From Desulfobacterales bacterium (GTDB lineage: Bacteria > Desulfobacterota > Desulfobacteria > Desulfobacterales > UBA5616), in assembly GCA_046483495.1 (NCBI GenBank), contig JAWODC010000070.1:32001-96000 (forward strand): a stretch of DNA of 64,000 nt, given 5' to 3'. A model generated the notes under the pieces. That model saw only the letters and a list, made by a program, of their open reading frames with translations. It was not told where the DNA came from and did not search any database. Position numbers and translations under genes: made by a program. Positions 45,334 through 64,000 of the stretch are shown piece by piece (positions within the stretch are counted from its first letter, which is position 1; every line of letters begins with the position of its first letter).

Positions 45334-45646
45334 ATAGCTTGCTCTGAACGCGTTATGTTCGAGATTTCCACGATACCGGTTTTGATGATAAGATTACGTT
45401 TATGCTTTCCGCGAAGACGTTTATCCCATTTTAACAAAAACAGAAATTTTCTCATATGCACATCGGGATAGGCATGGGCAGGGCGCTTTTTTTGTGGTAT
45501 AAGAAAATTTGTCTGAAACATCCAGACCATGCCCGGATGGCTGATTCTTACCATTTCCATATCAACATTATTACATCTGCTGCCGTTCGTTTTTGAGTAT
45601 TCGCTGCTGTGCATCCGCAAATCTACCGGGATGTCAGGAGGCCAGG

Positions 45647-46939
45647 ATGAAAATCCGAATGAACATCTACTATGGCTGGTGGATTGTCAGCGCCTTTTTC
45701 ATTACCCTTTTCATGGCGGCGGGAATTGCGGCAACCCACACGGTTTTCTTTAAATCCATCAGCGGTGATTTCGGATGGAGCCGCACCGCTTTTTCAACGG
45801 TCCTGTCCATCAACGTCATCCTCGGTTCATTGACAGCGCCGATATGGGGACGACTGGTGGACAGAAGGGGGGCACGTCTTGTCGTACCCTTGGGTGTCGT
45901 CATGGTCGGAGGGTCCCTTTTGCTGCTCAGCACCATGAGTTCCCTGACCGAAGCCTATCTGTTCTATATTTTTCTGGCTATAGGCGCCGGCGGCATTACA
46001 CTTATCCCCATCAGCTCGGCTGTATCACGGTGGTTTGTGCGCCGCAGGGGCTTGGCCATGGGTGTCACCCTCGCCGGCATCAGTATCGGGGGCATGTTTC
46101 TGGCTCCCCTGGCGGGGTGGCTCGTCAATAGTGTCGGCTGGCGGACCGGTTACCGGCTGTATGGGATTGCGTTGTGGGCCTTGTTGATTCCAATGCTTCT
46201 GATCGTCCTTCGACGGTCTCCCCGGGACAAGGGGCTGCTGCCGGATGGAGAGATACCCAAAGATACGCCCCCGGAGGAACCCATTTCATCCGTTCCGGAC
46301 GAACCGGCAGGGCTTACGCTGAAGCAGGCGATCAAAACACGAACCTTTTGGCTGATTGCCGTTGGTTTCATGCTGCCCATGTTTGCCGGCCGAGCGCTTC
46401 TTATTCACCTGGTCCCGATTATCACCGACTCGGGCATTTCCGCCGAAACGGCTGCGTCCGTTTATGGCTTCACGGTGGGCCTTAGCATTGTGGGCCGCCT
46501 TGGGTTCGGCTATGCAGCGGATAGATTCAGCGTTAGACGGATTTACGCCCTGTGTTATGCTGTAGAGGCTATCGGTATTTTTTGTCTTGTCGGCCTCGGG
46601 TCTTACGGAAACATAGCATTAATCGGATTCATTATCGTTTTTGGCATGAGCTACGGGGGAGGTATGTCCTTATCGCCGCTGCTCATCGGCAAAAGTTTCG
46701 GCATTGCCTTCATGGGTGAGATTTTCGGCGCCTTGGGTATCGCCGCCATGGTAGGGGGTGCGATCGGCCCTGTTTTTGCCGGATACAATTACGACCACTA
46801 TGGTACGTATCATTATGCCTTTATCGTATTTCTGGCCACACAACTTATTGCTGTCGCTGCCATTTACAATTCCCGATCGGCACTGGGTCAGGCAGGAAAA
46901 CCCCTCGAAGCCGCCCCGGTTGGTGAATCGGCTTCATAG
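45647..46939 (+). CDS. MFS transporter (monocarboxylate/OFA-like)
   Basis: YYGWWIV, GRLVDRRGAR motif A, WFVRRRGLAMG; about 12 TM helices. Confidence 0.9.
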   Translation: MKIRMNIYYGWWIVSAFFITLFMAAGIAATHTVFFKSISGDFGWSRTAFSTVLSINVILGSLTAPIWGRLVDRRGARLVVPLGVVMVGGSLLLLSTMSSLTEAYLFYIFLAIGAGGITLIPISSAVSRWFVRRRGLAMGVTLAGISIGGMFLAPLAGWLVNSVGWRTGYRLYGIALWALLIPMLLIVLRRSPRDKGLLPDGEIPKDTPPEEPISSVPDEPAGLTLKQAIKTRTFWLIAVGFMLPMFAGRALLIHLVPIITDSGISAETAASVYGFTVGLSIVGRLGFGYAADRFSVRRIYALCYAVEAIGIFCLVGLGSYGNIALIGFIIVFGMSYGGGMSLSPLLIGKSFGIAFMGEIFGALGIAAMVGGAIGPVFAGYNYDHYGTYHYAFIVFLATQLIAVAAIYNSRSALGQAGKPLEAAPVGESAS

Positions 46940-47066
46940 CTCAATTCCCCCGCTTCCATACGAAGGAAAGAGCCGTTGGGCCATTCGCCGGCAAGAAAAA
47001 CCAGACGGGCGCGACGGGATCCGGGTTTTGCGCTGTTGTTAACTTTTTTTCCACCGAAAGGAGCCG

Positions 47067-47927
47067 ATGATGTATACGACGATTCGAACCGAATTGGACA
47101 AAGGGGTTTTCTCGATTATATTATGCCGCCCCGAGGCGTATAATACCATAACCCCCGAACTGGCCAATGACCTTGGCACCGCCATCGATGAAGCCGATGC
47201 CGACGAAAAGACCCGGGTCATTCTATTGAGATCGGAAGGCCCGGCGTTTTGTGCCGGATATGGCCTCGATTGGTCAACGAAAGCACAGGCTGCGGAATCG
47301 GACCAAACCCGCATATGGGATTCCATTGCCGATTATCAGATGATGTCCGGTTTCGTCAATGTTTACCAGAAACTCTGGTATGCTTCCAAACCCTCTATCG
47401 CGGCGGTTCAGGGGTGGTGTATATGCGGCGGTACGGATCTCGTTTTGTGGTCCGATATTATCATCGCATCAGAAACGTCTGTTTTCGGTTATCCCACTTC
47501 ACGCCTGTGGGGCGTACCGACCACGGCCATGTGGGTCTACAGAATCGGATTTGAAAAAGCCAAGCGGTATTTGCTCACCGGTGATGAAATTCCTGGGCCG
47601 AAGGCCGCCGAAATCGGTCTTATTTTGGAAACCGTACCTGATGATAAACTCCAGGATTATGCAATGGCTATGGCAAGGCGAATGGCTTTGCTGCCGCTCA
47701 ATCAACTGCAAATGATAAAGCTCTACTGCAACCAGATCGCCGAAAATATGGGCATTCAATCACAGAAGACTTTGGGAATCCTTTTTGACGGTGTGGCCCG
47801 CCACACGCAGGAGGGGCTCGATTTTGTCAAAAAGGCGAATGAGATAGGCTTTAGAGCGGTCGTTCGCAGGCGAGATGAACCCTTTGGTGATTACGGTTCC
47901 GGTCCAAGAGCGAAGAAGAAAAAATAA
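47067..47927 (+). CDS. Crotonase/enoyl-CoA hydratase family protein
   Basis: AFCAGYGL and KPSIAAVQGWCICGG. Confidence 0.88.
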   Translation: MMYTTIRTELDKGVFSIILCRPEAYNTITPELANDLGTAIDEADADEKTRVILLRSEGPAFCAGYGLDWSTKAQAAESDQTRIWDSIADYQMMSGFVNVYQKLWYASKPSIAAVQGWCICGGTDLVLWSDIIIASETSVFGYPTSRLWGVPTTAMWVYRIGFEKAKRYLLTGDEIPGPKAAEIGLILETVPDDKLQDYAMAMARRMALLPLNQLQMIKLYCNQIAENMGIQSQKTLGILFDGVARHTQEGLDFVKKANEIGFRAVVRRRDEPFGDYGSGPRAKKKK

Positions 47928-47957
47928 TTCGCACCCTCTTTTTCAAAGGAGGTTTAT

Positions 47958-49076
47958 ATGGCCGCAATCGGGAAACGCAAGGCTGACCTGGACACCCCCT
48001 GCCTCGTCCTGGATGTAGAAATATTCGAGCAAAACCTGCAAAAGATGCAGGACGCCGCCGATCGTGCGGGCAAACAGCTTCGTCCGCATGTCAAAACACA
48101 CAAGTGTACGGCGCTGGCCCAAAGGCAAATGGACTGCGGCGCCAAGGGCCTCTGTGTCGCAAAAATTTCTGAAGCGGCGGTGCTGGTCAAGGCGCGATTC
48201 GATGACATTCTCATCACCGCGCCGGTGGTGACGCCCCGAAAAATTGAAATGCTGCTTGACCTTCTCGGCACCTGCCCTTCCTTGATGGTCGTTGTAGATC
48301 ATCCTGAAAACATAAAGCTTCTCGATGCCCGATTGGGCAATAGAGGGATGTCTATGGGGGTTCTCCTCGATATCGACGTCGGATTGAACCGGACTGGCGT
48401 GAAGCCGTCAGACGCACCGGCCATGGCAAAACACATCGTTTCGCAGCCGAACCTGCGCCTTCTGGGCGTTCAGGCATACGCCGGTCACGTGCAGCACATT
48501 CAGTCCTATGAAACCAGAAAGCGCGAATCCCGCAAATGCCTGCAGGACGCTGTGCGTGCATTTGGTGACATTCAAAACTATGTTCCAACCTGCACTATTT
48601 TCAGCGCTTCCGGCACCGGTACCTTCGACATCGATCTCGCAGTCGCCGAAATTTCGGAACTCCAGGTGGGATCGTATGTTTTCATGGATGCCGAGTATCT
48701 TGCGATTGGATCGGCTGATGACGAGAACCGATTCGTAACTTTTGCCCCTGCTTTGCGGTTGCTGACTACGGTGATAAGCACCAATCAAAAAGGGTTTGTC
48801 ACCGTCGATGCGGGCCTCAAGACGCTTTATAAAGACGGAGGGATACCGCAAGTCATCAGCCCGAAAGATCCGCCGCTGGAATATTATTGGTTTGGGGATG
48901 AACACGGCATGATCATCGGCGGGGAGAATTCAGCGATGCCACCGCTTGGCGCCGTCATCGAAGTCGTTACCTCTCATTGCGACCCGACGGTAAATATGTT
49001 CGATACGTACTATCTGACCGGAAAAGACGAAGTGGTCGGCAATTGGCCCATCGATATGAGAGGGTGCAGCCAATGA
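47958..49076 (+). CDS. DSD1/D-threonine-aldolase-family PLP enzyme (fold type III)
   Basis: LDTPCLVLD, LRPHVKTHK, RTGV, GSYVFMD, DEHG and HCDPTVN. Confidence 0.88.
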   Translation: MAAIGKRKADLDTPCLVLDVEIFEQNLQKMQDAADRAGKQLRPHVKTHKCTALAQRQMDCGAKGLCVAKISEAAVLVKARFDDILITAPVVTPRKIEMLLDLLGTCPSLMVVVDHPENIKLLDARLGNRGMSMGVLLDIDVGLNRTGVKPSDAPAMAKHIVSQPNLRLLGVQAYAGHVQHIQSYETRKRESRKCLQDAVRAFGDIQNYVPTCTIFSASGTGTFDIDLAVAEISELQVGSYVFMDAEYLAIGSADDENRFVTFAPALRLLTTVISTNQKGFVTVDAGLKTLYKDGGIPQVISPKDPPLEYYWFGDEHGMIIGGENSAMPPLGAVIEVVTSHCDPTVNMFDTYYLTGKDEVVGNWPIDMRGCSQ

Positions 49077-49250
49077 ACGATTGAGGTCATCCCTATGCCT
49101 CTCACAAAAATTTGCCTGGTGGGAACGGGGAGGCAACGAATACAGGTTCGGCCTTATTTACCTCGAAATTTTGGATACTTATTATGTAAACTGTCGGCGC
49201 ACAAGGCCTCGACATTCAAAAGGGGAAAAAAGAAATATACGGCAGAACCC

Positions 49251-50750
49251 ATGATTGTTGAAATGCACTGCCATACAACGGAGCATTCCGCGTGCAGCCA
49301 TGTTGGCGCTGCAGATCTGGTGAAGAAGGCTTTTCACGTCGGAATTCAGGCCGTGGTCATTACCGATCACCATTATCAATGGGATGATGACGAGCTGTGC
49401 GGGCTTCGACGAACATCCGGACTACCTGAAATATTCATCCTGTTATCCGGACAGGAAGTCACCACTTACGACTTTGGTGACGTCCTCGTATATGGGGCGG
49501 CGGCAACGATTCCCAAACAAAAAATTTCCCTGGCAGAAATCAGGGCGATGAATCCCGCCGCCGCAATCGTCTGGGCTCACCCATACCGCAATAAAAAAAT
49601 CCCTCGCCCGGAACAGCTGATGAATCCCCTCTTGGACGGTGTCGAGATATTCAGTTCCAATTACACGATCTTAGAGGCGACCCGGGCGTTGAAAGACTGG
49701 CATACTTACAAGTTTACCGCGACCGCCGGCACGGACACCCATGCATACAGCTATACCGGTTCCTATCCGACCGTGTTTGACCACCCGGTGCAGTCGATCA
49801 CCCAACTGGCTGAAGAAATAAAGGCGGGAAGATGTCGCCCCTATTTCAGGGAATCGCCCAAAACAGGCACAACCCGAACGAAAATATCCGAGTTGAAAAT
49901 CGGCCCCGGAACCCCTGAAAAAAGAAACGCCGTCATCGTAAAGACGGTAGAGGATACCGGTTCGTGGGAATCCGGTGAGCGATCCTTCCGCATTGTCGAC
50001 TATTTGGCAAAACAGGGATTCGACGGGGGGCCTTACCGGGTTCCGAAACCGCTCGACAAAGATGCCTACATCCTTTCTTTTATTGAAGAAAAAGTCGAAG
50101 GCGACACCTTGTTCGATGCGCTGGTGAAATCAACGCCGAAAAAAGCGCCCCTATATCTGGAGATGGCGGCCAAGTGGCTGAGCAAATTGCATCATTTGCG
50201 CATCAAACTGACCTCTGATGAAGAATTTTTATTCCTCGAACCTGAAAGGCTGGAAAATTACCTGAAAATTCATCATAAAAATATCGAGCGTGTTCGAGAG
50301 ATAAAAAATGTCGTATTGGAAAAAGAACTCGACTTGATTGAAAACCGACCGGAAATTCTCATTCAGGGACATGGTGATTTTCATCCGAAAAACATGATCG
50401 TCGGCAGGGATGAATCAAGAAAAGAATTTGTCGCAGCAATCGATTTCGACAGCTCTTATCAGCTGCCGCGTGCGTTCGACGTGGGAACGTTTTTAGCGCA
50501 GTACAATAACATGTTTTTTGATGAACCCGGTGTTCAAACACATGCCCCATCGGACATTTTCCTTGCGGCCTATCTGTCGGCCGTCCGGGACCTCGAAGAT
50601 GATTTTATGTCTCAGGTGAGTTTGTTCAAGGCAAGGACGTATATCAGCATATTGTATTACCTCTTGAAAGTGGGAAAAGGCGATACTGAAAATTTCTGGA
50701 CGATATTGGTTAAAGCAGAAAAAAGTTTGTCTGCTACCGCGTTTCGATAA
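49251..50750 (+). CDS. PHP phosphoesterase domain fused to an APH/choline-kinase-like phosphotransferase
   Basis: N-terminal HCHT, ITDH, AHP and GTDTH (PHP); C-terminal HGDFHPKN and IDFD (APH-like kinase). Confidence 0.82.
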   Translation: MIVEMHCHTTEHSACSHVGAADLVKKAFHVGIQAVVITDHHYQWDDDELCGLRRTSGLPEIFILLSGQEVTTYDFGDVLVYGAAATIPKQKISLAEIRAMNPAAAIVWAHPYRNKKIPRPEQLMNPLLDGVEIFSSNYTILEATRALKDWHTYKFTATAGTDTHAYSYTGSYPTVFDHPVQSITQLAEEIKAGRCRPYFRESPKTGTTRTKISELKIGPGTPEKRNAVIVKTVEDTGSWESGERSFRIVDYLAKQGFDGGPYRVPKPLDKDAYILSFIEEKVEGDTLFDALVKSTPKKAPLYLEMAAKWLSKLHHLRIKLTSDEEFLFLEPERLENYLKIHHKNIERVREIKNVVLEKELDLIENRPEILIQGHGDFHPKNMIVGRDESRKEFVAAIDFDSSYQLPRAFDVGTFLAQYNNMFFDEPGVQTHAPSDIFLAAYLSAVRDLEDDFMSQVSLFKARTYISILYYLLKVGKGDTENFWTILVKAEKSLSATAFR

Positions 50751-50767
50751 AAGACAACAAGCCGGTG

Positions 50768-51142
50768 TTATTCTCCACTCCCGATCAGGGGGAGCTCCTT
50801 TTCCACCGCAAAAAAGACGAGATACAGTTTCTTGTCTTTTCCATAGATGTGCTGTCTGCGATGCAGCGATTCAATCTGTTCAGGGTCCTGATTCTCCCGA
50901 ACTTTGGTCAAAAACAGCCGCTTGCCGTTATACCCCGGCCCCTTTTCGACAAACAAATAACAGGCATTGGGATTGGATTGAAGGTTGTTATGGGTCAGTC
51001 TTTCCCGCATGATCATGGCAATCGTACCATCGTCCATGATATGGGGTCTTGCGTAAACCGCCGCATCCACGTTTCCATCGGCATCTGCGGTCGCCAACAC
51101 ACCGATACCTTCCGTTTTCTCGAAGTATTCTTTAAGTTCCAT
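50768..51142 (-). CDS. Pyridoxamine 5'-phosphate oxidase-like FMN-binding protein
   Basis: GVLATADADGNVDAAVYARPH and THNNLQSNPNA pattern. Confidence 0.75.
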   Translation of the reverse strand: MELKEYFEKTEGIGVLATADADGNVDAAVYARPHIMDDGTIAMIMRERLTHNNLQSNPNACYLFVEKGPGYNGKRLFLTKVRENQDPEQIESLHRRQHIYGKDKKLYLVFFAVEKELPLIGSGE

Positions 51143-51217
51143 TGCTGTTCTCCAATGATCTTTTTTTCGATATTTTTTTTATATTAAACTTCGCGCGTTT
51201 CCGTAATAGAGTCAATG

Positions 51218-51883
51218 TTAAAGTTCCATCGCTTTCAAATGGGGCGAAATGATGAGTTTCGGTTCGGTCAGGTGTTGAACCTCCTTCACCGACCAGCCGG
51301 GGGCGATTTCAGTGAGCAGCAGGCCCGTTCCGGTTACTTCAATCACCGCCAGGTCGGTGACGATCACATTCACGCATTGTTTTGCGGTTACCGGCAGATT
51401 CAGATTTTTCACAATCTTGAACCCGCCGTGTTTCGTAGTGTGAGGCATGGCTACGATGACCTTTTTTGCGCCCCATGCGAGGTCCATGGCACCGCCGATC
51501 ATGGGATATTCGTCATTATCCCCCATTCCGTGGTTCGCCAAATCCCCCGTTTCCGAAACTTCCAGCGCACCGAGTATCGTGTAGATGCGTTTGCTTCGGA
51601 TCATGATAAACGAGGTCAAAAAATCGAAATAGCATTCGCCGGATTTGGGAAGCACAAAATGGCCGATGGCATCGATATGCCCGTAATCGGCCTGTTCCCA
51701 GTTGTCCTCCGTGACAAGTGGGCCATATCCCAATATGCCGTTTTCCGCCTGGAAATAGACGCCTTCAGGAGCGTACGTGGCGCACAAGGCGGGAAGCCCG
51801 GCACCTAAATTACAATAATCGCCGGGTTTTAATTCTTTGGCCGCCCTCATGGCGACGGTCTCTTCACTTAGACGCTCTTTCAT
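51218..51883 (-). CDS. 3-oxoacid CoA-transferase subunit B
   Basis: NLGAGLP, AENG (catalytic Glu), GGAMDL and IVTDLAV. Confidence 0.9.
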   Translation of the reverse strand: MKERLSEETVAMRAAKELKPGDYCNLGAGLPALCATYAPEGVYFQAENGILGYGPLVTEDNWEQADYGHIDAIGHFVLPKSGECYFDFLTSFIMIRSKRIYTILGALEVSETGDLANHGMGDNDEYPMIGGAMDLAWGAKKVIVAMPHTTKHGGFKIVKNLNLPVTAKQCVNVIVTDLAVIEVTGTGLLLTEIAPGWSVKEVQHLTEPKLIISPHLKAMEL

Positions 51884-52683
51884 TTGGTGCTCCCCTTTTT
51901 GTCCTGCGCCAGGACGGCTTTTCGAATGGAAGGATTTTCAAGCAGCAGTCTGATGAGGTCTTTTTTTTGTTTGGCGCTTCCCACGTCTCCCTCCGGTATT
52001 TTCACGATTCTGTCGACAAAAACACCCGGTGTAACGACGGATTCCGGATCGATCTCTCCGACCTCCACCAATTCGTCGACTTCGGCGATCGTCAATTTGG
52101 AGGCCATGGCAATGATTGGATTCGATCCACGTGAAGATCCATAATACGTGAGATTGCCGATCCGGTCCGCTTTATGCGCCTTGATGAACCCGACATCGGG
52201 TTGAAACGGTTTTTCCAGGAAGTATTCTTTGCCGTCGATTATTCTTTTCTCTTTGCCCTTGGCAACGGAAGTGCCGACGCCCACCGGATTATAAAAACCG
52301 CCGAGGCCCATGGCGGCGGCGTGAAGCCTTTCAATCCATATCCCATGCGGAATCACTTCTATTTCCAAGTGGCCAGTCTTCACACGGTCGCCGAGAAATC
52401 CCTTGTCATCCGTGCCGGCCGCTCGAGCACCGCCGATGCCCGGGGTTATCAGTTTTTTCAGCTGGGGCAGAAGCGAAGCGGGTGAAAAAACCAGCTCCTC
52501 GATACCCGGCATGGGCAAGAAATTTGTACACAACAGCGTAATCTCCTGAATGTTCTTGTCTACGACGGCTTTTATCAGGTGGTTCGGCGTACCTGAAAAC
52601 GACCAGCTGTGCATGGCAATGGATACCCCGTCCGAAATATCTGCAACCGCCTCTCTGCCCGAAGCATATACTTTGTCACCCAT
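51880..52683 (-). CDS. 3-oxoacid CoA-transferase subunit A
   Basis: ERLHAAAMGLGGFY, KADRIGNL and VVTPGVFVDRIV. Confidence 0.9.
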   Translation of the reverse strand: MGDKVYASGREAVADISDGVSIAMHSWSFSGTPNHLIKAVVDKNIQEITLLCTNFLPMPGIEELVFSPASLLPQLKKLITPGIGGARAAGTDDKGFLGDRVKTGHLEIEVIPHGIWIERLHAAAMGLGGFYNPVGVGTSVAKGKEKRIIDGKEYFLEKPFQPDVGFIKAHKADRIGNLTYYGSSRGSNPIIAMASKLTIAEVDELVEVGEIDPESVVTPGVFVDRIVKIPEGDVGSAKQKKDLIRLLLENPSIRKAVLAQDKKGSTK

Positions 52684-52731
52684 GTCCCTTTTCCTATTGG
52701 ATTTGCGTTATTCCGGTTTGCAATGGAGACA

Positions 52732-53517
52732 TCATTCGCCACTGAACTCAGGAAGCCTTTTTTCCATAAACGCTTCAAGGCCTTCCCTGGGTTCCCCGGA
52801 CAGGTACAACCGTTCGACCAGTTCCGGCTCACACAGATAAAGATCTCCAAATCCTGAAGCTGCGGACGCATTGACGATTTTTTTTGTCATTCGAATCGCC
52901 AGGTGGGCCTTGCCGGAAATCGTTTGGGCCATTTCGTGGACCGTCGGCATGACCTGATGAGGGGTAACGACCTTGTTTACCAATCCGATCTGCAGCGCCT
53001 TTTGGGAACCAACCATATCACAGGTCATAATCAGTTCTTTCGCCATGGAGGGACCGATGAGAGAAACCAGACGTTGCGTGCAGCCCCATGTGAAAAACAT
53101 GCCCACAGACGCTTCGGGAATGCTTAAAAATGCATCATCGGACATGATCCTGAAATCGCATGCCATGGCCAGTGAAAGGCCGGCGCCCACGGCAGGACCG
53201 TTGAGGGCGGCAAATGTAATTTGTTCCAGGTTTTCCAGGGTCCGCATGAAATCATGACCGAGCAATTGGCCGTTTCTCACCAGAGATCTGTTTTTGCCCA
53301 GCTTATCAAGAACCTCGAGGTCCACCCCGGCGGAAAACGTTTGGCCATTACCGGTGAATATGATCATTCGTGTATGGGAATCTTCACGCATATCCTGGAG
53401 AAATTGCAGCAGCTCCGATATCATTTGCTCGTTCATCGCATTGAGCTTGGAGGGCCGATTCAAGACAACCGTAACCGTTGAGCCTTCTTTTTTTGTCAGC
53501 AATGTTTCATACGGCAT
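52732..53517 (-). CDS. Enoyl-CoA hydratase/isomerase family protein
   Basis: LNRPSKLNA, FSAGVDL, GAGLSLAMACDFR and AFMEKRLPEF. Confidence 0.9.
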   Translation of the reverse strand: MPYETLLTKKEGSTVTVVLNRPSKLNAMNEQMISELLQFLQDMREDSHTRMIIFTGNGQTFSAGVDLEVLDKLGKNRSLVRNGQLLGHDFMRTLENLEQITFAALNGPAVGAGLSLAMACDFRIMSDDAFLSIPEASVGMFFTWGCTQRLVSLIGPSMAKELIMTCDMVGSQKALQIGLVNKVVTPHQVMPTVHEMAQTISGKAHLAIRMTKKIVNASAASGFGDLYLCEPELVERLYLSGEPREGLEAFMEKRLPEFSGE

Positions 53518-53583
53518 TTCGACACCTTTCATAGGGAATGGGGGTTCTTTGAATTATTCTTGCAAGCCGTCGAAACCAAGATC

Positions 53584-54951
53584 CTATTCGGTGTTCGACA
53601 GCCTCTTTTCAGTCTGTTTTATACCGTAATTCAGCCATCCCGCCTCATTGAAATTTACCGCCTGCTGCCGCAAACGCTTGTAGCATACAAGCTGTATTTT
53701 AAGGGCTGACCGGTTCTCCGGCTCTACCTGCAGTATACCCTGTGTCAACCGTAGAGCTTTTAACAGGCAGCCTTCTTCCAGCAATTCACCGGCCAATTCA
53801 GCGGATTTGTCGGCGCCGCCTGCCAGCCGGACCAGTTCCGGAATAATAATTTCTGACGGGGCGGCATACATGGAAGCGGGATTGCCGTCAAACCATCCGG
53901 CGTATCCCTCGTAGATTCCCCTCACGGACCAGGAAATTTTTCCATATCCTTCTCCGATATCCAGGTTTTCCGGGAGTCGGATTTCCTGCATCAAGGTATA
54001 AACATCTTTTCCCTGGTTCATGCCTTCCACCGTTTTGTCATGCACGTACAGCACAGCATCCCGGTATTTTGTCAGGGCATTGAAAATCGCTTCAACACCG
54101 TATATCGGTTCGCCGTGGCTTGGAAGCATGATTTCAGGTTCAAGCGCCAATACCTTGTCGATGGATTGTGCATAATCGAGAGCCCACCGCGGTTTGGTTC
54201 CCCGCAGGGTATAAATGTTGGGGAAAGATTGGTAAAACAGATCACCGATAAATAGCGCTTTGATTTCCGGGATGAAGATGCTGATGGCATCATAAGTCTC
54301 GCCGGGGGTATGCATGATCTCAAAAGTGTATTGTCCGACCTTCAGCGTATGCGTCTCGTTTACTAAAATCGTGGCCGGAATAATCGCATCGTAATTGCCG
54401 TTTTTGGATGGATCGGTTTTCACCAGGCTCAGATCGAATCCGAACTGGGAGGCATTGCGGATTTTGAAAAAATCCTCCAATCGTTTTTGGTAATGAAGAA
54501 ACTCGACCGATTCAGCATGCATAATGACCTCGGTTCCTTCCTGCCGCCACAGGTGTATCCCACCGGTATGGTCTCCATGCCCATGGGTGACGATGATGGC
54601 TCGGACGGGCTCTGAACTTACCGCCGTTAACAACGCTTTGTGCTTGGGGGCCACATTGGGCAAAGAAGTGTCGATAATGACGTTGCCTTCTGTCGTAGTA
54701 ACCAAAAACGTATTGCCGAAACCCGTTGCCTTGAATATGGAGGGGTGAACTTCCTGTGCCGATTCTTGATCGATGCTTTGCATCAAAAACATGCTGGGGT
54801 CCAGATCTTCCAATGTTTTCGGCTTTTGATTCGATGTGTCGCTTGCCGGGGCAACAGCGGCACTGAGGCCGATCACACAAGCGATTGACATAAAAAAAAA
54901 CAGGTGTAGACGTTTAAATTTGTAAATCGGATGATGGTCAAATGTGATCAT
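53584..54951 (-). CDS. Exported alkyl/aryl-sulfatase-like MBL-fold hydrolase
   Basis: Signal-like N-terminus, THGHGDH, PGET, FPNIYTLRG and YAGWFDGNP (SdsA1-type dimerisation region). Confidence 0.82.
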   Translation of the reverse strand: MITFDHHPIYKFKRLHLFFFMSIACVIGLSAAVAPASDTSNQKPKTLEDLDPSMFLMQSIDQESAQEVHPSIFKATGFGNTFLVTTTEGNVIIDTSLPNVAPKHKALLTAVSSEPVRAIIVTHGHGDHTGGIHLWRQEGTEVIMHAESVEFLHYQKRLEDFFKIRNASQFGFDLSLVKTDPSKNGNYDAIIPATILVNETHTLKVGQYTFEIMHTPGETYDAISIFIPEIKALFIGDLFYQSFPNIYTLRGTKPRWALDYAQSIDKVLALEPEIMLPSHGEPIYGVEAIFNALTKYRDAVLYVHDKTVEGMNQGKDVYTLMQEIRLPENLDIGEGYGKISWSVRGIYEGYAGWFDGNPASMYAAPSEIIIPELVRLAGGADKSAELAGELLEEGCLLKALRLTQGILQVEPENRSALKIQLVCYKRLRQQAVNFNEAGWLNYGIKQTEKRLSNTE

Positions 54952-55182
54952 GCGTTTCCCCTCCACAAAAAAAGATTCAATGATAGATGATGAGTGCCTG
55001 TTCGCCAGGTCCGACACGCCCCAGGGCAAAGGTGGAATGGTCGAAAAAAACAAACCGGATGGGCACGCCGGTAATATGCCGGAGACCATATCGTCGCCAT
55101 CGGACCAGGATGATTTTTTGAGGTGCCGTCCTTACATCATTTATAGACGAAAATCGGTAAAAAATCCAGCAGGATCAGAACA

Positions 55183-55659: not shown

Positions 55660-57036
55660 ATGAAAAGACGATATACGTTTATGCTGTTGACTGCCTCCGT
55701 AGTTTTTTTCCTGATGATGTTGACTTCCGGTTTTGCCCAAGTGGAAGAAAGCGGTCAGGAAAGCATTGCCGAAGAGGAGGCCGGCGGTCAGGGCGGCGGC
55801 CTCATGAATACCCTGTTCAAGGCGCTGGGGGATGCCGCGGAGGAATCCCTGAAAGAAGGCATCGATGAATTCATCGGGACGTACAAGGGACGCATCGGTG
55901 AAGTCAAGCTGCTTGAAAATCGAGGCAATGCCGTTGTTCTGGAAGTGACTTACGAGGGCGTCAAGCGCAAAGACGGGGTATATGTTCAGGGAGAAGTAAT
56001 GAAATGGAGCGAGTCTCTGGAAGGTTTCACCAGTACGCTCTCCCCGATTCGCGGCAAAAAAGGCTCCGTTGTTTTGACCATCGGCCGGCAGCAGCAGGGA
56101 GCCTCGGAATGGGGAATAACCTCATCTGAAACCGTCGATGAATCCGACCAAATCCGTTTGTCCCTTGTTCGGGAAACGAACCCCGACCGCCCGTTCGGCA
56201 GCCTGGTGTATAATTTTGAAAAAACATGGACGGACAGCAGTGATATCGTTGCGGCGGAACCTGAGACCGCCGAACCGGAAGAGGCGGTTGAGCTGGCGGA
56301 GGGTGAAACGGCGGAGGAGGCGGAAACCCTCGATTCGGGAGGCCGACCGCCTGCCCCGGCCGTTGTTCTTCCGGGAACAGTTTTAAAACCGGTGCAAACG
56401 GCCCCGATCAAACCGGCCGATACAGCCGGCACGTCCATCCGGAAACCTTCGATTGCGAAAGTCGAGGAGCCCGCTTCATCTTCTGTGCGGCCGTTGACAA
56501 CGATCGCCACCGCAACAAAAACAGCCAAACGTGCTCCCAAAACGATTACGGAATATCATTTTTTACTCCACGCAGATAAGGCCCAATGGAAAAGTTCTTC
56601 AGGAAAACTCGCTTTCCCCGGTTTGTCCAAAGATAAAGGGGGATATGTAAGAGCGTTGGATACCGGGGTGATATGCCCTGACAACAAGGCGAAAAACCTC
56701 TTGTTGACAACTCCGCATATGGTAAAAAACGGGACTATTCAAGGCGTTTATCCTTCTATTGTACCGGGAAAAAACCTCAAATTCAAGGCGGTCGGCGCAC
56801 TGCTCAAGGGTGCAACCGGTTCGGACGGGGTGATTATGTCGGTTTTCGTTCTGGAAAACGGCAGCCGTCGCCGGGTCGTTCGCAAAACGATCGATTGCAG
56901 CGCATACGCACACCTTGAAGCGGATCTGTCTGCCTGGGCCGGCAAAGAAATTCAGATCATCTTGCATGTCAAGGCTCGAAATACAGGCGTAAGAGATTGG
57001 GCGGTTTGGGTCCATCCGCGGTTGGAGCAGCAATAG
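55660..57036 (+). CDS. Secreted hypothetical protein with acidic and Pro/Thr linkers and a C-terminal beta-sandwich (NPCBM/galactose-binding-like) domain
   Basis: Signal peptide ending SGFA; C-terminal SDGV...ADLSAWAGKEIQIIL...DWAVWVHPRL pattern; RBS aaagga. Confidence 0.7.
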   Translation: MKRRYTFMLLTASVVFFLMMLTSGFAQVEESGQESIAEEEAGGQGGGLMNTLFKALGDAAEESLKEGIDEFIGTYKGRIGEVKLLENRGNAVVLEVTYEGVKRKDGVYVQGEVMKWSESLEGFTSTLSPIRGKKGSVVLTIGRQQQGASEWGITSSETVDESDQIRLSLVRETNPDRPFGSLVYNFEKTWTDSSDIVAAEPETAEPEEAVELAEGETAEEAETLDSGGRPPAPAVVLPGTVLKPVQTAPIKPADTAGTSIRKPSIAKVEEPASSSVRPLTTIATATKTAKRAPKTITEYHFLLHADKAQWKSSSGKLAFPGLSKDKGGYVRALDTGVICPDNKAKNLLLTTPHMVKNGTIQGVYPSIVPGKNLKFKAVGALLKGATGSDGVIMSVFVLENGSRRRVVRKTIDCSAYAHLEADLSAWAGKEIQIILHVKARNTGVRDWAVWVHPRLEQQ

Positions 57037-57102
57037 GGATCTAAATTCACGCTGTGCCGTATCGATGGTTTTCACACATCACCAAACAGGGAGTTGAACA
57101 CG

Positions 57103-58644
57103 ATGCGCCTATTCACGGTCATTGCCGTAATACTATGCCTTTCATTTTCCTTACAGGCCGAAGATAATCCGCCGGCTGTCGACAAAACCCTGAAGCTTTA
57201 CCCCGACCGGTTACAAACACTCGGCTCCGAGAGAGCTTCCGTTTCCCAGCCAAAAAAAACTGCTGTGGCAAAACCGGTCCGTCCCTTGACATTTCAGCCC
57301 GTTACCGCTGTTCGCATCAAGAAGCCCGTCCCCATCAAACTGGAAAGAATTCGTCCCATTGTCCCGGCACAGACTCCTGTAAAGCCCCAGGGCCCGGACC
57401 CGGCGGCCACACTGGATCTCAGTGATGTAATCGAGGATGCGGCACTTTTGGAAGATCTCGGCGATGTCTGCGGCTGGGACGGCCACCTGATTTTGCAGGA
57501 TTCAGCCGCAGCCCACGTGTTTTACTATATTCCCAGGGAGTTTCTCTTAAAGCGCGATCCTGAAGGATATCGGTTGAGTGTCCAGTACAATACCCGTGCG
57601 GAGACGGGGCAGCCCTCGGTCATGATTACAGCGGAATTGAAAGCGCCGCATCGGATCGGGGACGTCGGTCTTTTGAGGTCCATTTTGCGCCGGGCGCTGG
57701 ACCTCGAGCCGGCGGATCCCCTGGATGTAAAGGCGTTGCCGGGTCTCGGGGCCGCTGCGGATTTTCACGCCCTTGCCACCGGATTATCGCTGCCTGCCGA
57801 TCGCATCCATTTAAATCCGCCTGCCTATCTGAAACAGGCGTTCAGGCTGACATTGTCACTCACGCAAGATGAAACCGAAGAGGTATTAGCACAAATCGCC
57901 GGTGACGGATTGGTGGGCAATTTAAATGTCAAGGTAGACGATACGGTGATTCCCATTCCCATCCGCCTGCAATATCAGCGATTTTCCGGGCTCCAGCTTA
58001 AAGGGTTTGAAGGATGGATCGAAGGGAGAGCCATCGCCACACTGGAAAATGTAACGGATTTTCCGATCCGCATCGAAGCCGTCAATGCATACCGTATCAA
58101 AAACGGTGAATTGGTGCGGATTTCAAAGCAGCTCAAGCCCATCAGCATAGATCCCGCATCTGCCAGGTCCTTTAACATGCCCGCGGCCAAGGCGCTTCTT
58201 GGTGATCATCTTGCCGTTGCATGGATGGGGCTTTCCATGGACGGGAGTTGTTCGGACTGCATCAGCCGCATCGATTCAACGGTCAGAAAAGGTGTGGCCT
58301 TATCCCCGGGAAGCCGGATTCAGCTGGAAGCCATTCCGGCCGTTTTTGAAGAATTCGGTCTTTACAAGCTGATCATTCACGTCCAAACACCTTATTTTAC
58401 CGCCAAAGGCAAAAGCGTTCAACAGCAGGAAGTTGCTCTTACCGCAGAACAAAATAAAAACGAAGATTTGCAGATATTCGTTCCCTCGGATAAAGGCACG
58501 GAGCCGTTGCTTTTTAAATACCGGATCGAAGCGGTCACCGAGACCGGCGAAAACCGTATTGCACCCGAATGGCACGATTCCAGAAAGCTGACGCAGTATT
58601 TCGGCGCCGCCCAGGTGGAAGGCCTGTTTCACCAAGCAGAGTAG
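57103..58644 (+). CDS. Secreted hypothetical protein, paralogue 1 of an unassigned family
   Basis: Signal peptide ending SLQA, Pro/Lys-rich linker, then LILQD...VFYYIP core; C-terminal FKYRI...TG...W domain. Confidence 0.75.
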   Translation: MRLFTVIAVILCLSFSLQAEDNPPAVDKTLKLYPDRLQTLGSERASVSQPKKTAVAKPVRPLTFQPVTAVRIKKPVPIKLERIRPIVPAQTPVKPQGPDPAATLDLSDVIEDAALLEDLGDVCGWDGHLILQDSAAAHVFYYIPREFLLKRDPEGYRLSVQYNTRAETGQPSVMITAELKAPHRIGDVGLLRSILRRALDLEPADPLDVKALPGLGAAADFHALATGLSLPADRIHLNPPAYLKQAFRLTLSLTQDETEEVLAQIAGDGLVGNLNVKVDDTVIPIPIRLQYQRFSGLQLKGFEGWIEGRAIATLENVTDFPIRIEAVNAYRIKNGELVRISKQLKPISIDPASARSFNMPAAKALLGDHLAVAWMGLSMDGSCSDCISRIDSTVRKGVALSPGSRIQLEAIPAVFEEFGLYKLIIHVQTPYFTAKGKSVQQQEVALTAEQNKNEDLQIFVPSDKGTEPLLFKYRIEAVTETGENRIAPEWHDSRKLTQYFGAAQVEGLFHQAE

Positions 58645-58669
58645 TGAAGAAAGAGATCATGTTATCACC

Positions 58670-59713
58670 ATGGGGTTAATGCATACCATGAAAACCGTCA
58701 TTGTCGTTTTTGCAGCGTGTGTATGCTGGGCGGCGAGCTGCCGGGCGGCTCCGAATCTGGACCATTTCTACGATATACAGGGAACACGGGTCTACCGGGA
58801 TCATGAAATCCCGTCGGAGTGGTATGTGGCCCCGGCACCGCCGGTGTTAAGACAAAGGACGGACAACACGCCCGATTATGGTTTTGCCCTGTATCGATAC
58901 GTGGGCCGATCGGGCACGGGGGATTCCGGAAGTTTCCGGGTCCGGGGGGTGCTGACGTTCGGCATTGAACGGTTCCGGGATTCGGCCGTTTCGGCAAAAA
59001 TCCGCAAAGCATTACGGGCAAAGGGTTTCCGTACACCCCGGTTGAAATCCATGCCGGTGTCCGCCGTTCGCAGTACGTTCATGTTTGCCGATAAATCGGA
59101 GACCCGCGAGTACCAAACCCGGTGGAAAAGCGGAAGTATTATGGTGTTTCTCGATGCGCACATGGCCGAGGTCCTCTGGGATGCCGTAAAGGCCGGACAA
59201 ATCCAGGTCAGCGTTTGCATCGATGAAGAACTTGCCGGCGTGCGTAACCGCGAAGATGCGTGGCAGCCGTCTTCAGCATCCCAGGTGAGGACCGTTCCCG
59301 TCGACATGGATATGACCGCCCATTCCGACCATTTCCAGCGCATCGATTTAGGAGAAAGAATGAAGGTCGGCTATACCGGGGTAGACGTTTTCTGCTTTGA
59401 TTTCATAGAAAATCTCGAAGAAAATCTCTACGCAAAAATTGTCGAGGTGGCCATACCCACGACCGGCCGGGAGCTTGTCGAGGCGGTTACATTCAAAGAT
59501 AACGGGGAATACCGGCATCGCATCGAATTCAAGCTGGCAAAAGATCTGGATCAGCCTTATCGGTATCGCGTTTCCCGAATTTTTCAGGACGGCAGCAAAC
59601 AAACCGGTCCATGGCAGGAGAAATCCGGGGAAACCCTGCTGGATATTACCGCCTATAATTATGCAGGCGGTGCAGCCGAAGAAACCGGGAAGCACGATCG
59701 GACCGTCGATTGA
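58670..59713 (+). CDS. Secreted hypothetical protein, paralogue 2 (shortest)
   Basis: Signal peptide; VYRD...WYVAPAPP.L, AEVLWD and YRYRV...DG...W motifs shared with neighbours. Confidence 0.75.
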   Translation: MGLMHTMKTVIVVFAACVCWAASCRAAPNLDHFYDIQGTRVYRDHEIPSEWYVAPAPPVLRQRTDNTPDYGFALYRYVGRSGTGDSGSFRVRGVLTFGIERFRDSAVSAKIRKALRAKGFRTPRLKSMPVSAVRSTFMFADKSETREYQTRWKSGSIMVFLDAHMAEVLWDAVKAGQIQVSVCIDEELAGVRNREDAWQPSSASQVRTVPVDMDMTAHSDHFQRIDLGERMKVGYTGVDVFCFDFIENLEENLYAKIVEVAIPTTGRELVEAVTFKDNGEYRHRIEFKLAKDLDQPYRYRVSRIFQDGSKQTGPWQEKSGETLLDITAYNYAGGAAEETGKHDRTVD

Positions 59714-59724
59714 AAAGGAGGCGC

Positions 59725-62556
59725 ATGAAACGAGCTATTCTTATAAAGGTGTATGTTCTCATAGCGGTTTGTTTGGTGTCGATATCCCACGACGCCGCAT
59801 TTTCCCAGGAAATCATGCTGGATCACATGGAAAAATGCGGGGACCTGATCTGCTATCCCGCCATGAAAGATCCCAATTCCTATTATTATTTGCCGGATCA
59901 GCCCAGGTTGGCTTATAAAGACGGCAAGCCTCAGTTTTCATTTTTAAAATATGCGCAGACAAAGGAAACCGGAAAGGCCGGCACCGGACAGGCCGAGGGC
60001 GGCGGCATCATTCATTTTCTGGTCACCTACGGCGTTTCTGACAATCGGGTCAAACAGGCGGAAAGGCAATTGCAAAAACGCCATCCGGAAGCCATGATTG
60101 TGGGTCCAATCGTTTATCGCAGGGGCAATTTTGCCCTGATTACATCGTTTAAAGAAGGCAATGAGCTCACCACGAAGACGGTGGCGGTGGGCAAAGCCCC
60201 GTTAATGGAGGGCCAGAAAGCGGCGGTTTCCATGGCCCTGACCCGTGAGGGCGCAGAACTCCTCTGGGAGAGTTTTCGAACCGATACGCCGGACATTTCC
60301 CTGGTTTTTGACATGGCGTTCGCCGGCATTCGGGAACCCTATGAAGCCACCCTCGAAGCGAATTGGAGTCAAATCAGTAAGCATGACCGAATTAAAGCCG
60401 GTTTCCAATACAAATGGTTCGGTGCAGATGTGGATATTCTTTTCCAGGAATTGCGCCGGACCGGCGCCGTAAAAATCACCACCAAGGGTGAACAGGCGCT
60501 CATGGACAAGATGCTGGAAAGCGCCAATGAAAAGCTGTTAAAGGTCATGTTCGATCCCGTACAGGCCGATGACCTCACCCGGGCGGCTTCGGAAAGCGGG
60601 TATGACAGCCTGAACCAGGCGGCAAAAATGCTGAAAGATGCCGCAAGCTCCCGGCGCAGCAGTTCCGGCGGCAGCTCGGGCAGCGGTTCCGGCGCCCGAT
60701 CCTCCGAAAGCCGCCGCACCGGCAACAGCAAAGGGAATGGCGGGTTCTGGGCAGCAATATCTCATGTGGTTTTACCCTTGGCGAACGCTTTTCCAATCCC
60801 GGTGCAGCAGACCGTCGAGGATGAAACTCAGAGCACGGAAGGGGATGGTTCGGCGGACCAGGAAGAACATGTGTCCCGCGCAGCACGTCGGTTCGAAGAA
60901 GGGGTTTCCCTGTTTGACCAGGGAAGGTACCGGGAAGCCCTTCGAGCGTTTGAAGAAGCCGAGCAAATACATATTCAGGATACCGGAGGACCGTCCACCA
61001 GTGGAACCTCGCCATATAACATCGGCATGTGCCATTTGGAATTGGGCAATCTTCGCCAGGCCGAAAGAAACCTCGAGGAAGCGGTTCGCCGTTATCCTGA
61101 TGGAAGCCCGCAACAGCAAAGAGCCAGAGATGAACTGGAGCAATTGCGGGACCGGTTATCTTCCATGCGGCGGCCGGGCGGGTCTTCGGGAACCGATCAA
61201 ATTGCAGCTGTTGAGGATGCAGCCGCGGAATCGGCCGGTGAGGCCTACAGCCGGGCTCGCCGCCTTTATGAGGAGGCTCGTACCGGCGGATTCGAGGCAG
61301 GACCCACACGCACAGCGCTCGAGGCCTATGAGAGCTACCAGCGCGACCACCATCCAACCGGCACACGCGCCGATGAGGTCAACGGCCGCATTCGGATGCT
61401 GCAAACACGCCTTTTAGCTGCCGAGGCATCCGAAAGCCCCGCCATTACGGTCGGTGAATTGGATGCCCCGTCAACTGATCTGCCGAATCCATTTGAGCAA
61501 GACAGGGATGCTACACAAACCTCAACCGGCGGGTCGTCAGACAGCTCGCCCTCATCCGGAGCTTCCGGATCCGGACAGCCGGAAACAGGTGCGCAAAGCT
61601 CAAGCACATCCAATTCTGGCTCCTCCGGGGCGGGTACTTCCAATAGCTCCGGATCGAGCAGTGGGGCGGCTACCGAATCCGGCTCATCCCCCGGAACCTC
61701 CGCCCGCCAGGCATCCTCTTCCCGCCGGACCAGGGCGGACGGATCGCCGGGGTTTTCCCTGGTGGCCTCCTACAAGATGAAACGGATCAAGCGTTCGGGA
61801 AAAATGGTCTACCACATGAATCATTTCCGAACCGAAACCCAGGCCTTTGCCATGGCCGAAAACATCGGGTCCATCTTTAAGAAATACGGCCGTGACAAGC
61901 GGGTTTTCAGGGCGGTCACCATCGATGATCCCGTCTTCAAACAGCGGGAAATCCGCGTCACGCTGGACGGGCAGGATGCCGCCACGTTCACGAAATACCT
62001 CAATTTTGTCACCGTAAAAATGAAAAAACGGCACCAGCGGGGCGATCTCACCACCGCAGAAATCGTGATTACACCGGACACATTCAGTGATTCAGGGAAT
62101 CATTTTTCCATGACCTACGGCTGGAAAAATGACGCCGATCGCACACGATGGCTGAATTACGAATACCAGGCCATCTGGTCGTTTCACGGAGGAGTGGAGA
62201 TGCGGTCCCCATGGATACAGACGGATTCCCCGATGCTTGCCTTATCCCCCCCGCACCGGTACCGCACCCTGTCCATCGAAGGGAACGGGGATGTGCTGTC
62301 CCGTGCCGGTGTCCGGCACGGTGTGGTAACGCTCTTATGCCGTATCGGGGATCGGTATCTTCAGCAGCGGGTGACGATTCGCAACAACGGCCCGGCGCCT
62401 TCCACGGTTCTGGAGGTTCCGGAAGATCCGAACAACCCCGAAACGAAAGTCGGGATCACCTGGTACCTCACAGAAAACCGGAAAGTGACCTCAGAAGAAT
62501 CCGGGTTCGAAGGAGACATTATATATTGGGACCAACTGCCCAAAGGAGGTATTTAA
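59725..62556 (+). CDS. Large secreted protein, paralogue 3, with inserted TPR and Ser/Gly-rich region
   Basis: RBS aaggagg, signal peptide ending AFS; YYYLPDQPRL, GGIIHFLV, GAELLWES and DPVFKQRE; TPR-like FEEGVSLFDQGRYREALRAFEEA...YNIGMCHLELG. Confidence 0.8.
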   Translation: MKRAILIKVYVLIAVCLVSISHDAAFSQEIMLDHMEKCGDLICYPAMKDPNSYYYLPDQPRLAYKDGKPQFSFLKYAQTKETGKAGTGQAEGGGIIHFLVTYGVSDNRVKQAERQLQKRHPEAMIVGPIVYRRGNFALITSFKEGNELTTKTVAVGKAPLMEGQKAAVSMALTREGAELLWESFRTDTPDISLVFDMAFAGIREPYEATLEANWSQISKHDRIKAGFQYKWFGADVDILFQELRRTGAVKITTKGEQALMDKMLESANEKLLKVMFDPVQADDLTRAASESGYDSLNQAAKMLKDAASSRRSSSGGSSGSGSGARSSESRRTGNSKGNGGFWAAISHVVLPLANAFPIPVQQTVEDETQSTEGDGSADQEEHVSRAARRFEEGVSLFDQGRYREALRAFEEAEQIHIQDTGGPSTSGTSPYNIGMCHLELGNLRQAERNLEEAVRRYPDGSPQQQRARDELEQLRDRLSSMRRPGGSSGTDQIAAVEDAAAESAGEAYSRARRLYEEARTGGFEAGPTRTALEAYESYQRDHHPTGTRADEVNGRIRMLQTRLLAAEASESPAITVGELDAPSTDLPNPFEQDRDATQTSTGGSSDSSPSSGASGSGQPETGAQSSSTSNSGSSGAGTSNSSGSSSGAATESGSSPGTSARQASSSRRTRADGSPGFSLVASYKMKRIKRSGKMVYHMNHFRTETQAFAMAENIGSIFKKYGRDKRVFRAVTIDDPVFKQREIRVTLDGQDAATFTKYLNFVTVKMKKRHQRGDLTTAEIVITPDTFSDSGNHFSMTYGWKNDADRTRWLNYEYQAIWSFHGGVEMRSPWIQTDSPMLALSPPHRYRTLSIEGNGDVLSRAGVRHGVVTLLCRIGDRYLQQRVTIRNNGPAPSTVLEVPEDPNNPETKVGITWYLTENRKVTSEESGFEGDIIYWDQLPKGGI

Positions 62557-62558
62557 GC

Positions 62559-64000
62559 ATGACTTGCTTACGCAAATTCTGGCGGATACTGCTATGCATA
62601 CTGATGCCGATGTTTGCCGGACCGGCATGGGCTCTTGTGAACTACGAAGCCGGCCAACTGGAACTGAACGGTATTTTACTGCTCCAGGATGCCGGGGATC
62701 CCGATGTTTATTATTATCTGCCGCCCGCCCCCCGGGTGTCTGAAAGAAAAGACGGTGGACTCGAGCTCTCCCTGGTGAAATTCATCGACCCAAAAGGGGA
62801 CACCAGCGGCGGACTTCTGCATATGCTGGTGACGTTTACGCTGCCGGAAGATGAACTGAAGAATCTTCGGGAAGCATTGAAACAGGAAAACGGTAAAGCG
62901 CGCATCGCCGGACCGATTCCGCTGCACCAGGACGAAGAAGGCAGCTTTACGATTATTTCCGGATCGTTGTCGGACAAGGGATTTACCCGGAGTCTCATCA
63001 GCAGCGGCCGGGCACCGGTAACCCCGGGTTCGAAGGCTGCCGTGGCGGCGACACTGAGCCCCCATGGGGCGACCCTGTTGTGGGAATCGCTGTCCAAACC
63101 CACTTCGGATGTTTCAGTGGCCCTGCGAACCTATTATGAAGCGGTTCTGCCGTCTTTTCAGGCCAAAATAAGCGCCGAAATCAGTACGGTTTACGAGCAT
63201 TTTTCCCGGGTGAAAAATCGACAGGAAAATTATACCAAGCGCCAGCTCAGGGACATCATGGATGAACTTGTCAGAGAAGGCGTTATTCATGTGGAGATTT
63301 TTGACCGGCTTCCCGAGGATGCGGCCGCCAAGGCCATGCAAAACCTGGTTGATCTGGCAACCACAAAATTAACGGAAATCATTTTCGATCAGCAAACCGG
63401 GTTTACGGCCATTCCGGAAAAGGAGCAGGCCGTGGAGTCCGGACAAATCGCCGGCCGACAGAAAAAAGGATGGCTGGCAAGGCTGTTTACGAGTTCCGGC
63501 AACCAGAAATACTACACAGACAATCAGTACGTTCTAAAAGAGCGCTCCGACGTCAACAGGGCCGTATTTCATATCAATTTAACCCGCCGCGCCGTGGTGA
63601 AGGTGCCGATGGATACGGCGGGAAACATTTCAGGGCTTTACCGCGAATTTAGAGAAAATCCGGAAATGTTTCGGGTGGTGAACCTTGCCGACCCGGCTTT
63701 CCAAAAAAGGGAAGTCTATTTCCACATCGACGGTGATTTCTCCGGTGTGTTCGAGGACATGATGAACTACGCCGGTGTTTCCATTTTGAAAACCTATAAC
63801 GATCATGAGGATGCCACCGGAGAACTGATTTTTACCCGGGAAGATATTCGGGAAGGAAGATTGAGCAAATCCTGGCGATATGCAAGACTGGGTGAGAAGG
63901 ACGACGCCTGGCTCGATTACGGGTATCGCACCACGTGGAGCCTGCAGGGCCGCAACCGTATCACGTATCCGAAAAAAGAAGGCGAATGGATAAAAAGCGG
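62559..64000 (+). CDS. Secreted protein, paralogue 4 (runs off window; absent from ORF track)
   Basis: RBS aaggagg, ATG at 62559, signal peptide ending AWA; manual translation is open to the window end with YYYLPPAPRV, GGLLHMLV, GATLLWES and DPAFQKRE. Confidence 0.85.
   Translation, partial: MTCLRKFWRILLCILMPMFAGPAWALVNYEAGQLELNGILLLQDAGDPDVYYYLPPAPRVSERKDGGLELSLVKFIDPKGDTSGGLLHMLVTFTLPEDELKNLREALKQENGKARIAGPIPLHQDEEGSFTIISGSLSDKGFTRSLISSGRAPVTPGSKAAVAATLSPHGATLLWESLSKPTSDVSVALRTYYEAVLPSFQAKISAEISTVYEHFSRVKNRQENYTKRQLRDIMDELVREGVIHVEIFDRLPEDAAAKAMQNLVDLATTKLTEIIFDQQTGFTAIPEKEQAVESGQIAGRQKKGWLARLFTSSGNQKYYTDNQYVLKERSDVNRAVFHINLTRRAVVKVPMDTAGNISGLYREFRENPEMFRVVNLADPAFQKREVYFHIDGDFSGVFEDMMNYAGVSILKTYNDHEDATGELIFTREDIREGRLSKSWRYARLGEKDDAWLDYGYRTTWSLQGRNRITYPKKEGEWIKS

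Follow-up and report, generated by a model that had tools for sequence, protein, structure and literature searches.

A conserved six-gene cassette of putatively exported proteins from a Desulfobacterales bacterium: a possible complement-like membrane-inserting assembly

Introduction

Ordered beta-pores built from several paralogous proteins are known from the MACPF/CDC fold, as in the membrane attack complex (MAC) of complement and in the CDCLs. In the excerpts of the MAC account used here, this complex consists of paralogues whose hairpins differ in length and charge, helical segments become beta-hairpins, and some hairpins only touch the outer leaflet whereas others cross: the hairpins of C6 and C7 carry one aromatic band and basic tips, and C8 and C9 cross the membrane (PMC6294249). 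For the two- and three-component CDC-like toxins (CDCLs) of Bacteroidota, the excerpts used describe adjacent secreted paralogues, protease activation, an antibacterial role and one platform subunit that recruits about 30 pore subunits, and YGR and GG hinge motifs are named there for MACPF/CDC (PMC11169675). Here, we describe a cassette of six genes, G1 to G6, that begins within a stretch of 64,000 nucleotides from a Desulfobacterales bacterium (assembly GCA_046483495.1, contig JAWODC010000070.1, positions 32,001 to 96,000 of the forward strand), referred to as the window in the following.

The cassette is real, conserved and undescribed within the literature searched, in which no description of it was found (supplements fall outside that scope). 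We give an even chance to the reading that its products form an ordered, complement-like, membrane-inserting hetero-oligomer that attacks other cells and is not a detectable member of MACPF/CDC. If this is true, either such a design has evolved repeatedly or a deeply rearranged branch exists within MACPF/CDC, and a function would be at hand for a large unannotated family with 922 representatives at 50% identity, in which the Atlas cluster of G5 holds 2122 members, most commonly from Bacteroidota, and has no Pfam family. As hairpin residues and a subunit interface are now specified, the idea is directly testable.

Organization of the cassette

The initial annotation had listed five co-oriented open reading frames and held that the operon runs past the window. 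Both statements were borne out: all five reading frames were found, and the genome sequence places the stop of G5 328 bases beyond the window end, followed by a sixth and last gene, G6, which encodes a further paralogue. In window coordinates, the features are:

55660-57036, + strand: G1, 458 aa; signal peptide, amphipathic helix, N-terminal domain (residues ~74-191), Pro/Thr-rich linker and NPCBM-like C-terminal domain
57103-58644, + strand: G2, 513 aa; most divergent paralogue, apparently without the hairpin module
58670-59713, + strand: G3, 347 aa; core domain and one immunoglobulin (Ig)-like domain, short turn in place of the hairpin module
59725-62556, + strand: G4, 943 aa; full paralogue with putative amphipathic hairpin, TPR and Ser/Gly-rich insert and third amphipathic strand
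60388-60441, + strand: G4 residues 222-239, predicted amphipathic beta-hairpin with the turn at 230-231, register from covariation
60892-61104, + strand: TPR repeats in the variable insert of G4 (PF13424, E 1e-8, above cut-off)
61753-61773, + strand: G4 residues 677-683, third amphipathic strand right after the insert
62559-64000 within the window, ending at window-equivalent 64328, + strand: G5, 589 aa; full paralogue with polar hairpin segment
63462-63488, + strand: G5 residues 302-310, basic amphipathic helix (helix 305-310 in the model)
64432-66426, window-equivalent (G000:C17:96432-98426 in the source genome, G000): G6, 664 aa; fifth paralogue, outside the window

The Sec-type leaders claimed earlier were recognized by eye in all six proteins as a basic and then a hydrophobic stretch with a small-residue site. 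A lipobox was not found in G1-G6, either by eye or with a simple lipobox pattern. The six proteins are likely exported.

Five of the six proteins are paralogues

By BLASTP and profile comparison, G2-G6 are paralogues and G1 is unrelated. G4, G5 and G6 align with each other by BLASTP at E 1e-18 to 4e-69 (G4/G5: 3e-26 and 5e-23; G5/G6: 4e-69), and G3 matches the family profile at 98.4-98.6%. G2 reaches only 67-70% against the G4-G6 profiles. Its comparison with G3 gives 95.1% (E 3e-8, 273 columns), a value that was obtained after addition of five distant G2-type sequences and stood at 21% beforehand; it is through G3 that G2 links to the family. G1 scores 5% against the family. The four divergent paralogues originally claimed are thus similar beyond chance, and G6 extends their number to five. 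The motifs quoted for them are present in the translations, except that G2 lacks the GG strand.

That no named family is recognizable holds for G1-G3, G5 and G6, while G4 carries the TPR insert, the only family match in Pfam, NCBIfam, PHROG, PADLOC and PDB sequences. The family profile (A2) retrieved 0 PDB matches at E<=10, Pfam and NCBIfam revealed no catalytic family in the core, and BLASTP found no second copy of the cassette family in the source genome. As outcomes that would speak against its proposal, the initial annotation had named a confident match to a characterised family, a lack of profile similarity among the paralogues and mostly solitary homologues. No such match was found, the similarity is significant, and the homologues sit in multi-gene cassettes.

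G1 had been described as unrelated to the other proteins, with a carbohydrate-binding-like end and a targeting role. The first point stands; the second is reflected in NPCBM-like (PF08305) C-termini that stay below the Pfam cut-off. Such matches (E 0.001-0.05, 14-19.5 bits versus a cut-off of 23.9) were obtained for three of five G1 C-termini scanned and, again below cut-off, for one of 11 full-length members; G1 of the window itself has no NPCBM match. In three metagenome loci, a G2-type protein bears a G1-like N-terminal domain, in one case together with two DUF7910 domains, and profile comparison of the G1 N-domain with these G2-type fusions gives 78.9% (E 1.6e-5). The G1 N-domain therefore appears, on alignment, to be fused to G2-type proteins elsewhere. 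The sub-threshold NPCBM-like end and the apparent fusion mildly favour the idea of G1 as the targeting subunit, which is likely its role.

Predicted fold and candidate membrane-touching segments

The AlphaFold2 model of G5 (pLDDT 87.4, pTM 0.68) predicts a beta-rich core with long split strands 185-207 and 336-356, followed by two Ig-like domains at the end. A helix-loop-helix 208-239 (helices 208-217 and 227-239) sits between strands 202-207 and 243-247, and a helix 253-275 follows; residues 276-335 are less confident (pLDDT 56-77), and the model shows no confident second helical bundle. The G3 model (pLDDT 88.6) consists of the core and one Ig-like domain. A short turn connects its two long strands, and G3 therefore lacks the module 200-340; judged from its sequence, G2 appears to lack it as well. 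Covariation in 307 sequences (effective number 197) pairs 185-196 with 346-356, 202-207 with 336-341 and 204 with 245 (z 9.9). Fold searches, in which the lists were dominated by Ig domains and the hairpin module was not queried alone, returned generic beta-sandwich matches only.

A tree of 148 core sequences (FastTree, midpoint root), with clades assigned by eye, places G4, G5, G6 and a set of signal-less proteins in separate branches. In the G4 clade, the segment between 204 and 245 is 40 residues long in 50 sequences and has 44 residues in the other five. When this segment is extended as a hairpin centred on 204/245, alternate residues are hydrophobic on both strands over approximately nine residues. 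With 2000 shuffles per sequence and a face picked after viewing the G4-clade loops, one hydrophobic hairpin face was scored at p<0.05 in 54 of 55 G4-clade sequences, which are related to each other, and in 0 of 44 of the G5 clade; the corresponding counts were 8/9 in a neighbouring group, 2/4 for signal-less proteins and 2/11 for G6, odd-length segments (5 G5, 17 G6, 2 signal-less, 2 others) being left out. A test fixing neither face nor register gave 23/55 for the G4 clade versus 1/49 for the G5 clade. For residues 222-239 of the window G4, the face contrast is 1.55 (p 0.0005 against 2000 shuffles). The median identity of the G4-clade hairpin 18-mers is only 22%.

Just behind the insert, the third strand has one face that is more hydrophobic in 55 of 55 G4-clade sequences, and its register would set it beside the hairpin. 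Taken together, these patterns make G4 the likely membrane-spanning subunit. The loops of the G6 clade are longer (median 51 versus 26) and contain Trp in 22 of 28 cases; G6 itself carries a long aromatic-tipped loop. A basic amphipathic helix motif is present in 14 of 50 G5-clade sequences, window G5 included, one of the 14 being a chance match elsewhere in the protein. We presume that residues 302-310 of G5 resemble a MinD-type membrane-targeting sequence.

Predicted contact between G5 and G6

A complex of G5 (residues 25-490) and G6 (residues 58-555) was predicted with a score of 0.62, the best of three controls reaching 0.00; separate runs have no less than 83% of their contacts in common, and partner pLDDT is at least 69. 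Of 157 solved pairs, 116 reach the score mark, as do 2 of 215 mismatched ones; with the alignments used here, these figures are valid only approximately. In the predicted complex, which supports the hetero-oligomer proposed in the initial annotation, the contact runs through the core and the first Ig domain. The two contact faces share 2 of approximately 70 equivalent positions in a common numbering. Because they are nearly disjoint, the modelled contact is head-to-tail and extendable, and it could continue into a ring, an arc or a filament. The prediction covers one of ten paralogue pairs, and proteins closely related to a true partner can likewise score above the mark, which leaves some room for secreted adhesins or enzymes that act independently, stem from tandem duplication and form no single complex. 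We consider this highly improbable in view of the one-for-one conserved gene order (see below), the separate tree branches, the apparent G1/G2 fusions and a core without a catalytic family.

Proposed mechanism

Since gene order is fixed, G4, G5 and G6 form separate branches and a G5-G6 contact is predicted, we infer an ordered assembly. The six putatively exported proteins would assemble in fixed order as a side-by-side ring or arc on the membrane of a target cell, which would be another microbe. G1 would bind a surface glycan, and the hairpin-less G2 and G3 would nucleate the row, G2 being likely the nucleating subunit. G5 with its amphipathic helix and G6 with its aromatic-tipped loop would hold on to the surface of the membrane in the manner of C6 and C7. 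The G4-type subunit would then unfold its helix-loop-helix into a membrane-spanning beta-hairpin and open the pore, like C8 and C9. A protease may trigger assembly. The more specific claim of a widespread bacterial counterpart of the complement MAC on an undescribed fold, with at least five paralogues ordered behind a glycan-binding subunit as pore-less nucleators, two grippers and one crossing class that perhaps drags its variable insert across the membrane, is a tentative one, to which we give slightly less than an even chance.

Distribution and variant cassettes

All 13 related genome loci share one gene order (ten with all six genes whole, three interrupted by a contig edge), and the flanks vary. 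These loci span Desulfobacterota, a gammaproteobacterium and a campylobacterium. The cassette is present in 4 of 301 genomes of the phylum, source genome included, and in 8 of 201 of the class, two samples that overlap each other and the 13 loci; from this patchy presence we conclude that it is accessory. Relatives of G5 made up 677 of 8000 scored candidates. Fourteen of 17 metagenome loci were analysed, three weak matches being left out, and they have the core order G2-G3-G5-G4-type-G6, at times with an additional short member or extra full-length members; one locus (L047) has six full or short members. A decaying copy is found in genome G422 (L042:6977-13490), where G5 is split by approximately 1.3 kb of other sequence and G3 is broken; G1, G2, G4 and G6 are intact.

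Two genomes (G264 and G446) contain a distant version of the cassette without signal peptides and with more Ig-like domains. In G446 (contig C166, L041:627-19405), the order begins with a TIR gene, a gene for an nSTAND1 ATPase with pentapeptide repeats, a G2-like gene and a gene for 621 aa, and continues with a short member of 216 aa, three full members and two unannotated genes (313 and 278 aa), which have no Pfam or PADLOC match and which we take to be prenyltransferase/cyclase-like. This cassette is possibly a defence or cell-death system. In G264 (L025:9556-20000 and L026:698-7178), one member has a C-terminal trypsin-like domain and is followed by the same two small genes and then by a gene for 1498 aa with a G2-like end. 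The same member carries an insert that we assume, from a motif, to be OmpA-type peptidoglycan-binding-like; this insert has no Pfam match. The signal-less sister version, with TIR/STAND neighbours at one locus and a trypsin-like fusion at another, may operate this machine from within the cell.

Three relatives contain a protease or have one as a neighbour, which speaks for the proposed mechanism: the trypsin-like domain just mentioned, a caspase and an M43 peptidase. The caspase (C14) domain is fused to a family member (P0226), and the M43 metallopeptidase is encoded directly behind a cassette (L056:9198-10766). Another cassette includes a gene for prolipoprotein diacylglyceryl transferase (L057:3958-4731).

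Several observations weigh against a membrane-crossing assembly that attacks other cells. Orthologues of G5 are 54-85% conserved, unlike toxins, which are typically fast-evolving; no conserved immunity gene was found beside the 13 loci, and the window cassette has no protease. Three amphipathic strands per subunit are an odd number for an antiparallel barrel, and the window cassette contains one full-hairpin subunit, G4, which bears an insert of 380 residues. Fold models cover G5 and G3, the G4 hairpin being read from sequence, and the antiparallel and parallel pairings of 202-207 with 243-247 are barely separated (8.2 versus 7.2). The confident G5-G6 contacts exclude the hairpin module, and the by-eye clades, the choice of the hydrophobic face and the relatedness of the sequences count in the same direction.

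The strong conservation of G5 and the lack of a conserved immunity gene, together with the TPR insert in G4 and the putative OmpA-like insert of the signal-less version, would suit the same ordered assembly inserting instead into the outer membrane of the producing cell, where it would serve as a channel, a translocon or a surface-anchored structure. We regard this as somewhat unlikely: the patchy presence, changing flanks and broken G422 copy mark the cassette as dispensable, the lectin-like domains on G1/G2, which can be swapped, point to a target outside the producer, and the OmpA-like reading of the signal-less insert gained no Pfam match. Under this alternative, too, the cassette would encode an undescribed hetero-oligomeric membrane machine.

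Comparison with known systems

The division of labour proposed for the cassette matches what the excerpts used here say of MAC and CDCLs, one of the points in favour of an attack on other cells by a complement-like assembly. As in the MAC, the paralogues would divide labour between surface-touching and crossing segments, and as with the CDCLs they are adjacent and likely secreted, and would take platform and pore roles. The MACPF/CDC core is a bent four-stranded sheet with two helical bundles (TMH1 and TMH2); the G5 model shows long strands that are split and, between strands that are coupled, a single helix-loop-helix. One MACPF-like trait, a helical segment with the periodicity of an amphipathic beta-hairpin, is present by sequence in the G4 clade only (54/55). 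PF01823 and PF01289, however, match none of G1-G6 and nothing in the whole source genome, and an hhalign comparison with single sequences, one CDC and two MACPF, which has low sensitivity, stayed at a probability of <1%. Of the hinge motifs, a conserved GG is missing after strand 243-247 and a YGR before the hairpin; the conserved G84-G85 sits in the N-domain. Unlike the MAC with its two hairpins, the cassette has one hairpin and one extra strand, the neighbour of the hairpin-bearing strand lies further along the chain, and the genes form a bacterial operon in which two of the paralogues have no hairpin. CDCLs are encoded by adjacent PF01289 genes with SpII lipoprotein signals, whereas the cassette shows no PF01289 match and no lipobox and comprises five paralogues. 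The family may be of remote, rearranged descent from MACPF/CDC.

A hetero-polymer that does not insert must also be weighed; it could serve as a short pilus or an adhesin, form a lattice on the surface, or build an Mce-like tunnel with the hydrophobic face lining the lumen. In actinobacterial Mce operons, six genes in tandem each encode a different subunit of a single envelope complex, and each subunit has an MlaD domain. The cassette likewise has six tandem genes, but no MlaD domain (Pfam, NCBIfam) and no long helical extension in the G5 and G3 models. Type V pilus (Fim/Mfa) proteins have a lipoprotein signal peptide and tandem transthyretin-like domains with donor-strand exchange. In contrast to these and to sortase pilins, the cassette proteins lack a lipobox and have an N-terminal core of 355 residues, hairpin module included, that matches to these systems leave uncovered. 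A non-inserting polymer is in our view distinctly unlikely.

Genomic surroundings and minor features

Upstream of the cassette (window 45593-55089) lie unrelated genes that we take to be catabolic, presumably for an MFS transporter, enoyl-CoA hydratases, a CoA transferase pair, a pyridoxal phosphate enzyme and a metallo-beta-lactamase-fold hydrolase. We assume the gene after G6 to be an unrelated, amidase-like one. Behind the signal peptide, both G2 (window 57250-57370) and G6 have an N-terminal arm rich in Pro and Lys that is kept in orthologues and could be a propeptide or docking arm. G1 opens with a Gly-Gly-led amphipathic helix (window 55790-55870), the pattern of which resembles the helix before the third strand in short, insert-free G4-clade proteins (e.g., P0248 and P0262). 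Directly past G6 and outside the window, a short element (L001:11446-11533) draws many unlike metatranscriptome contigs at high depth; it is probably a repeated element or a small structured RNA common to other loci.

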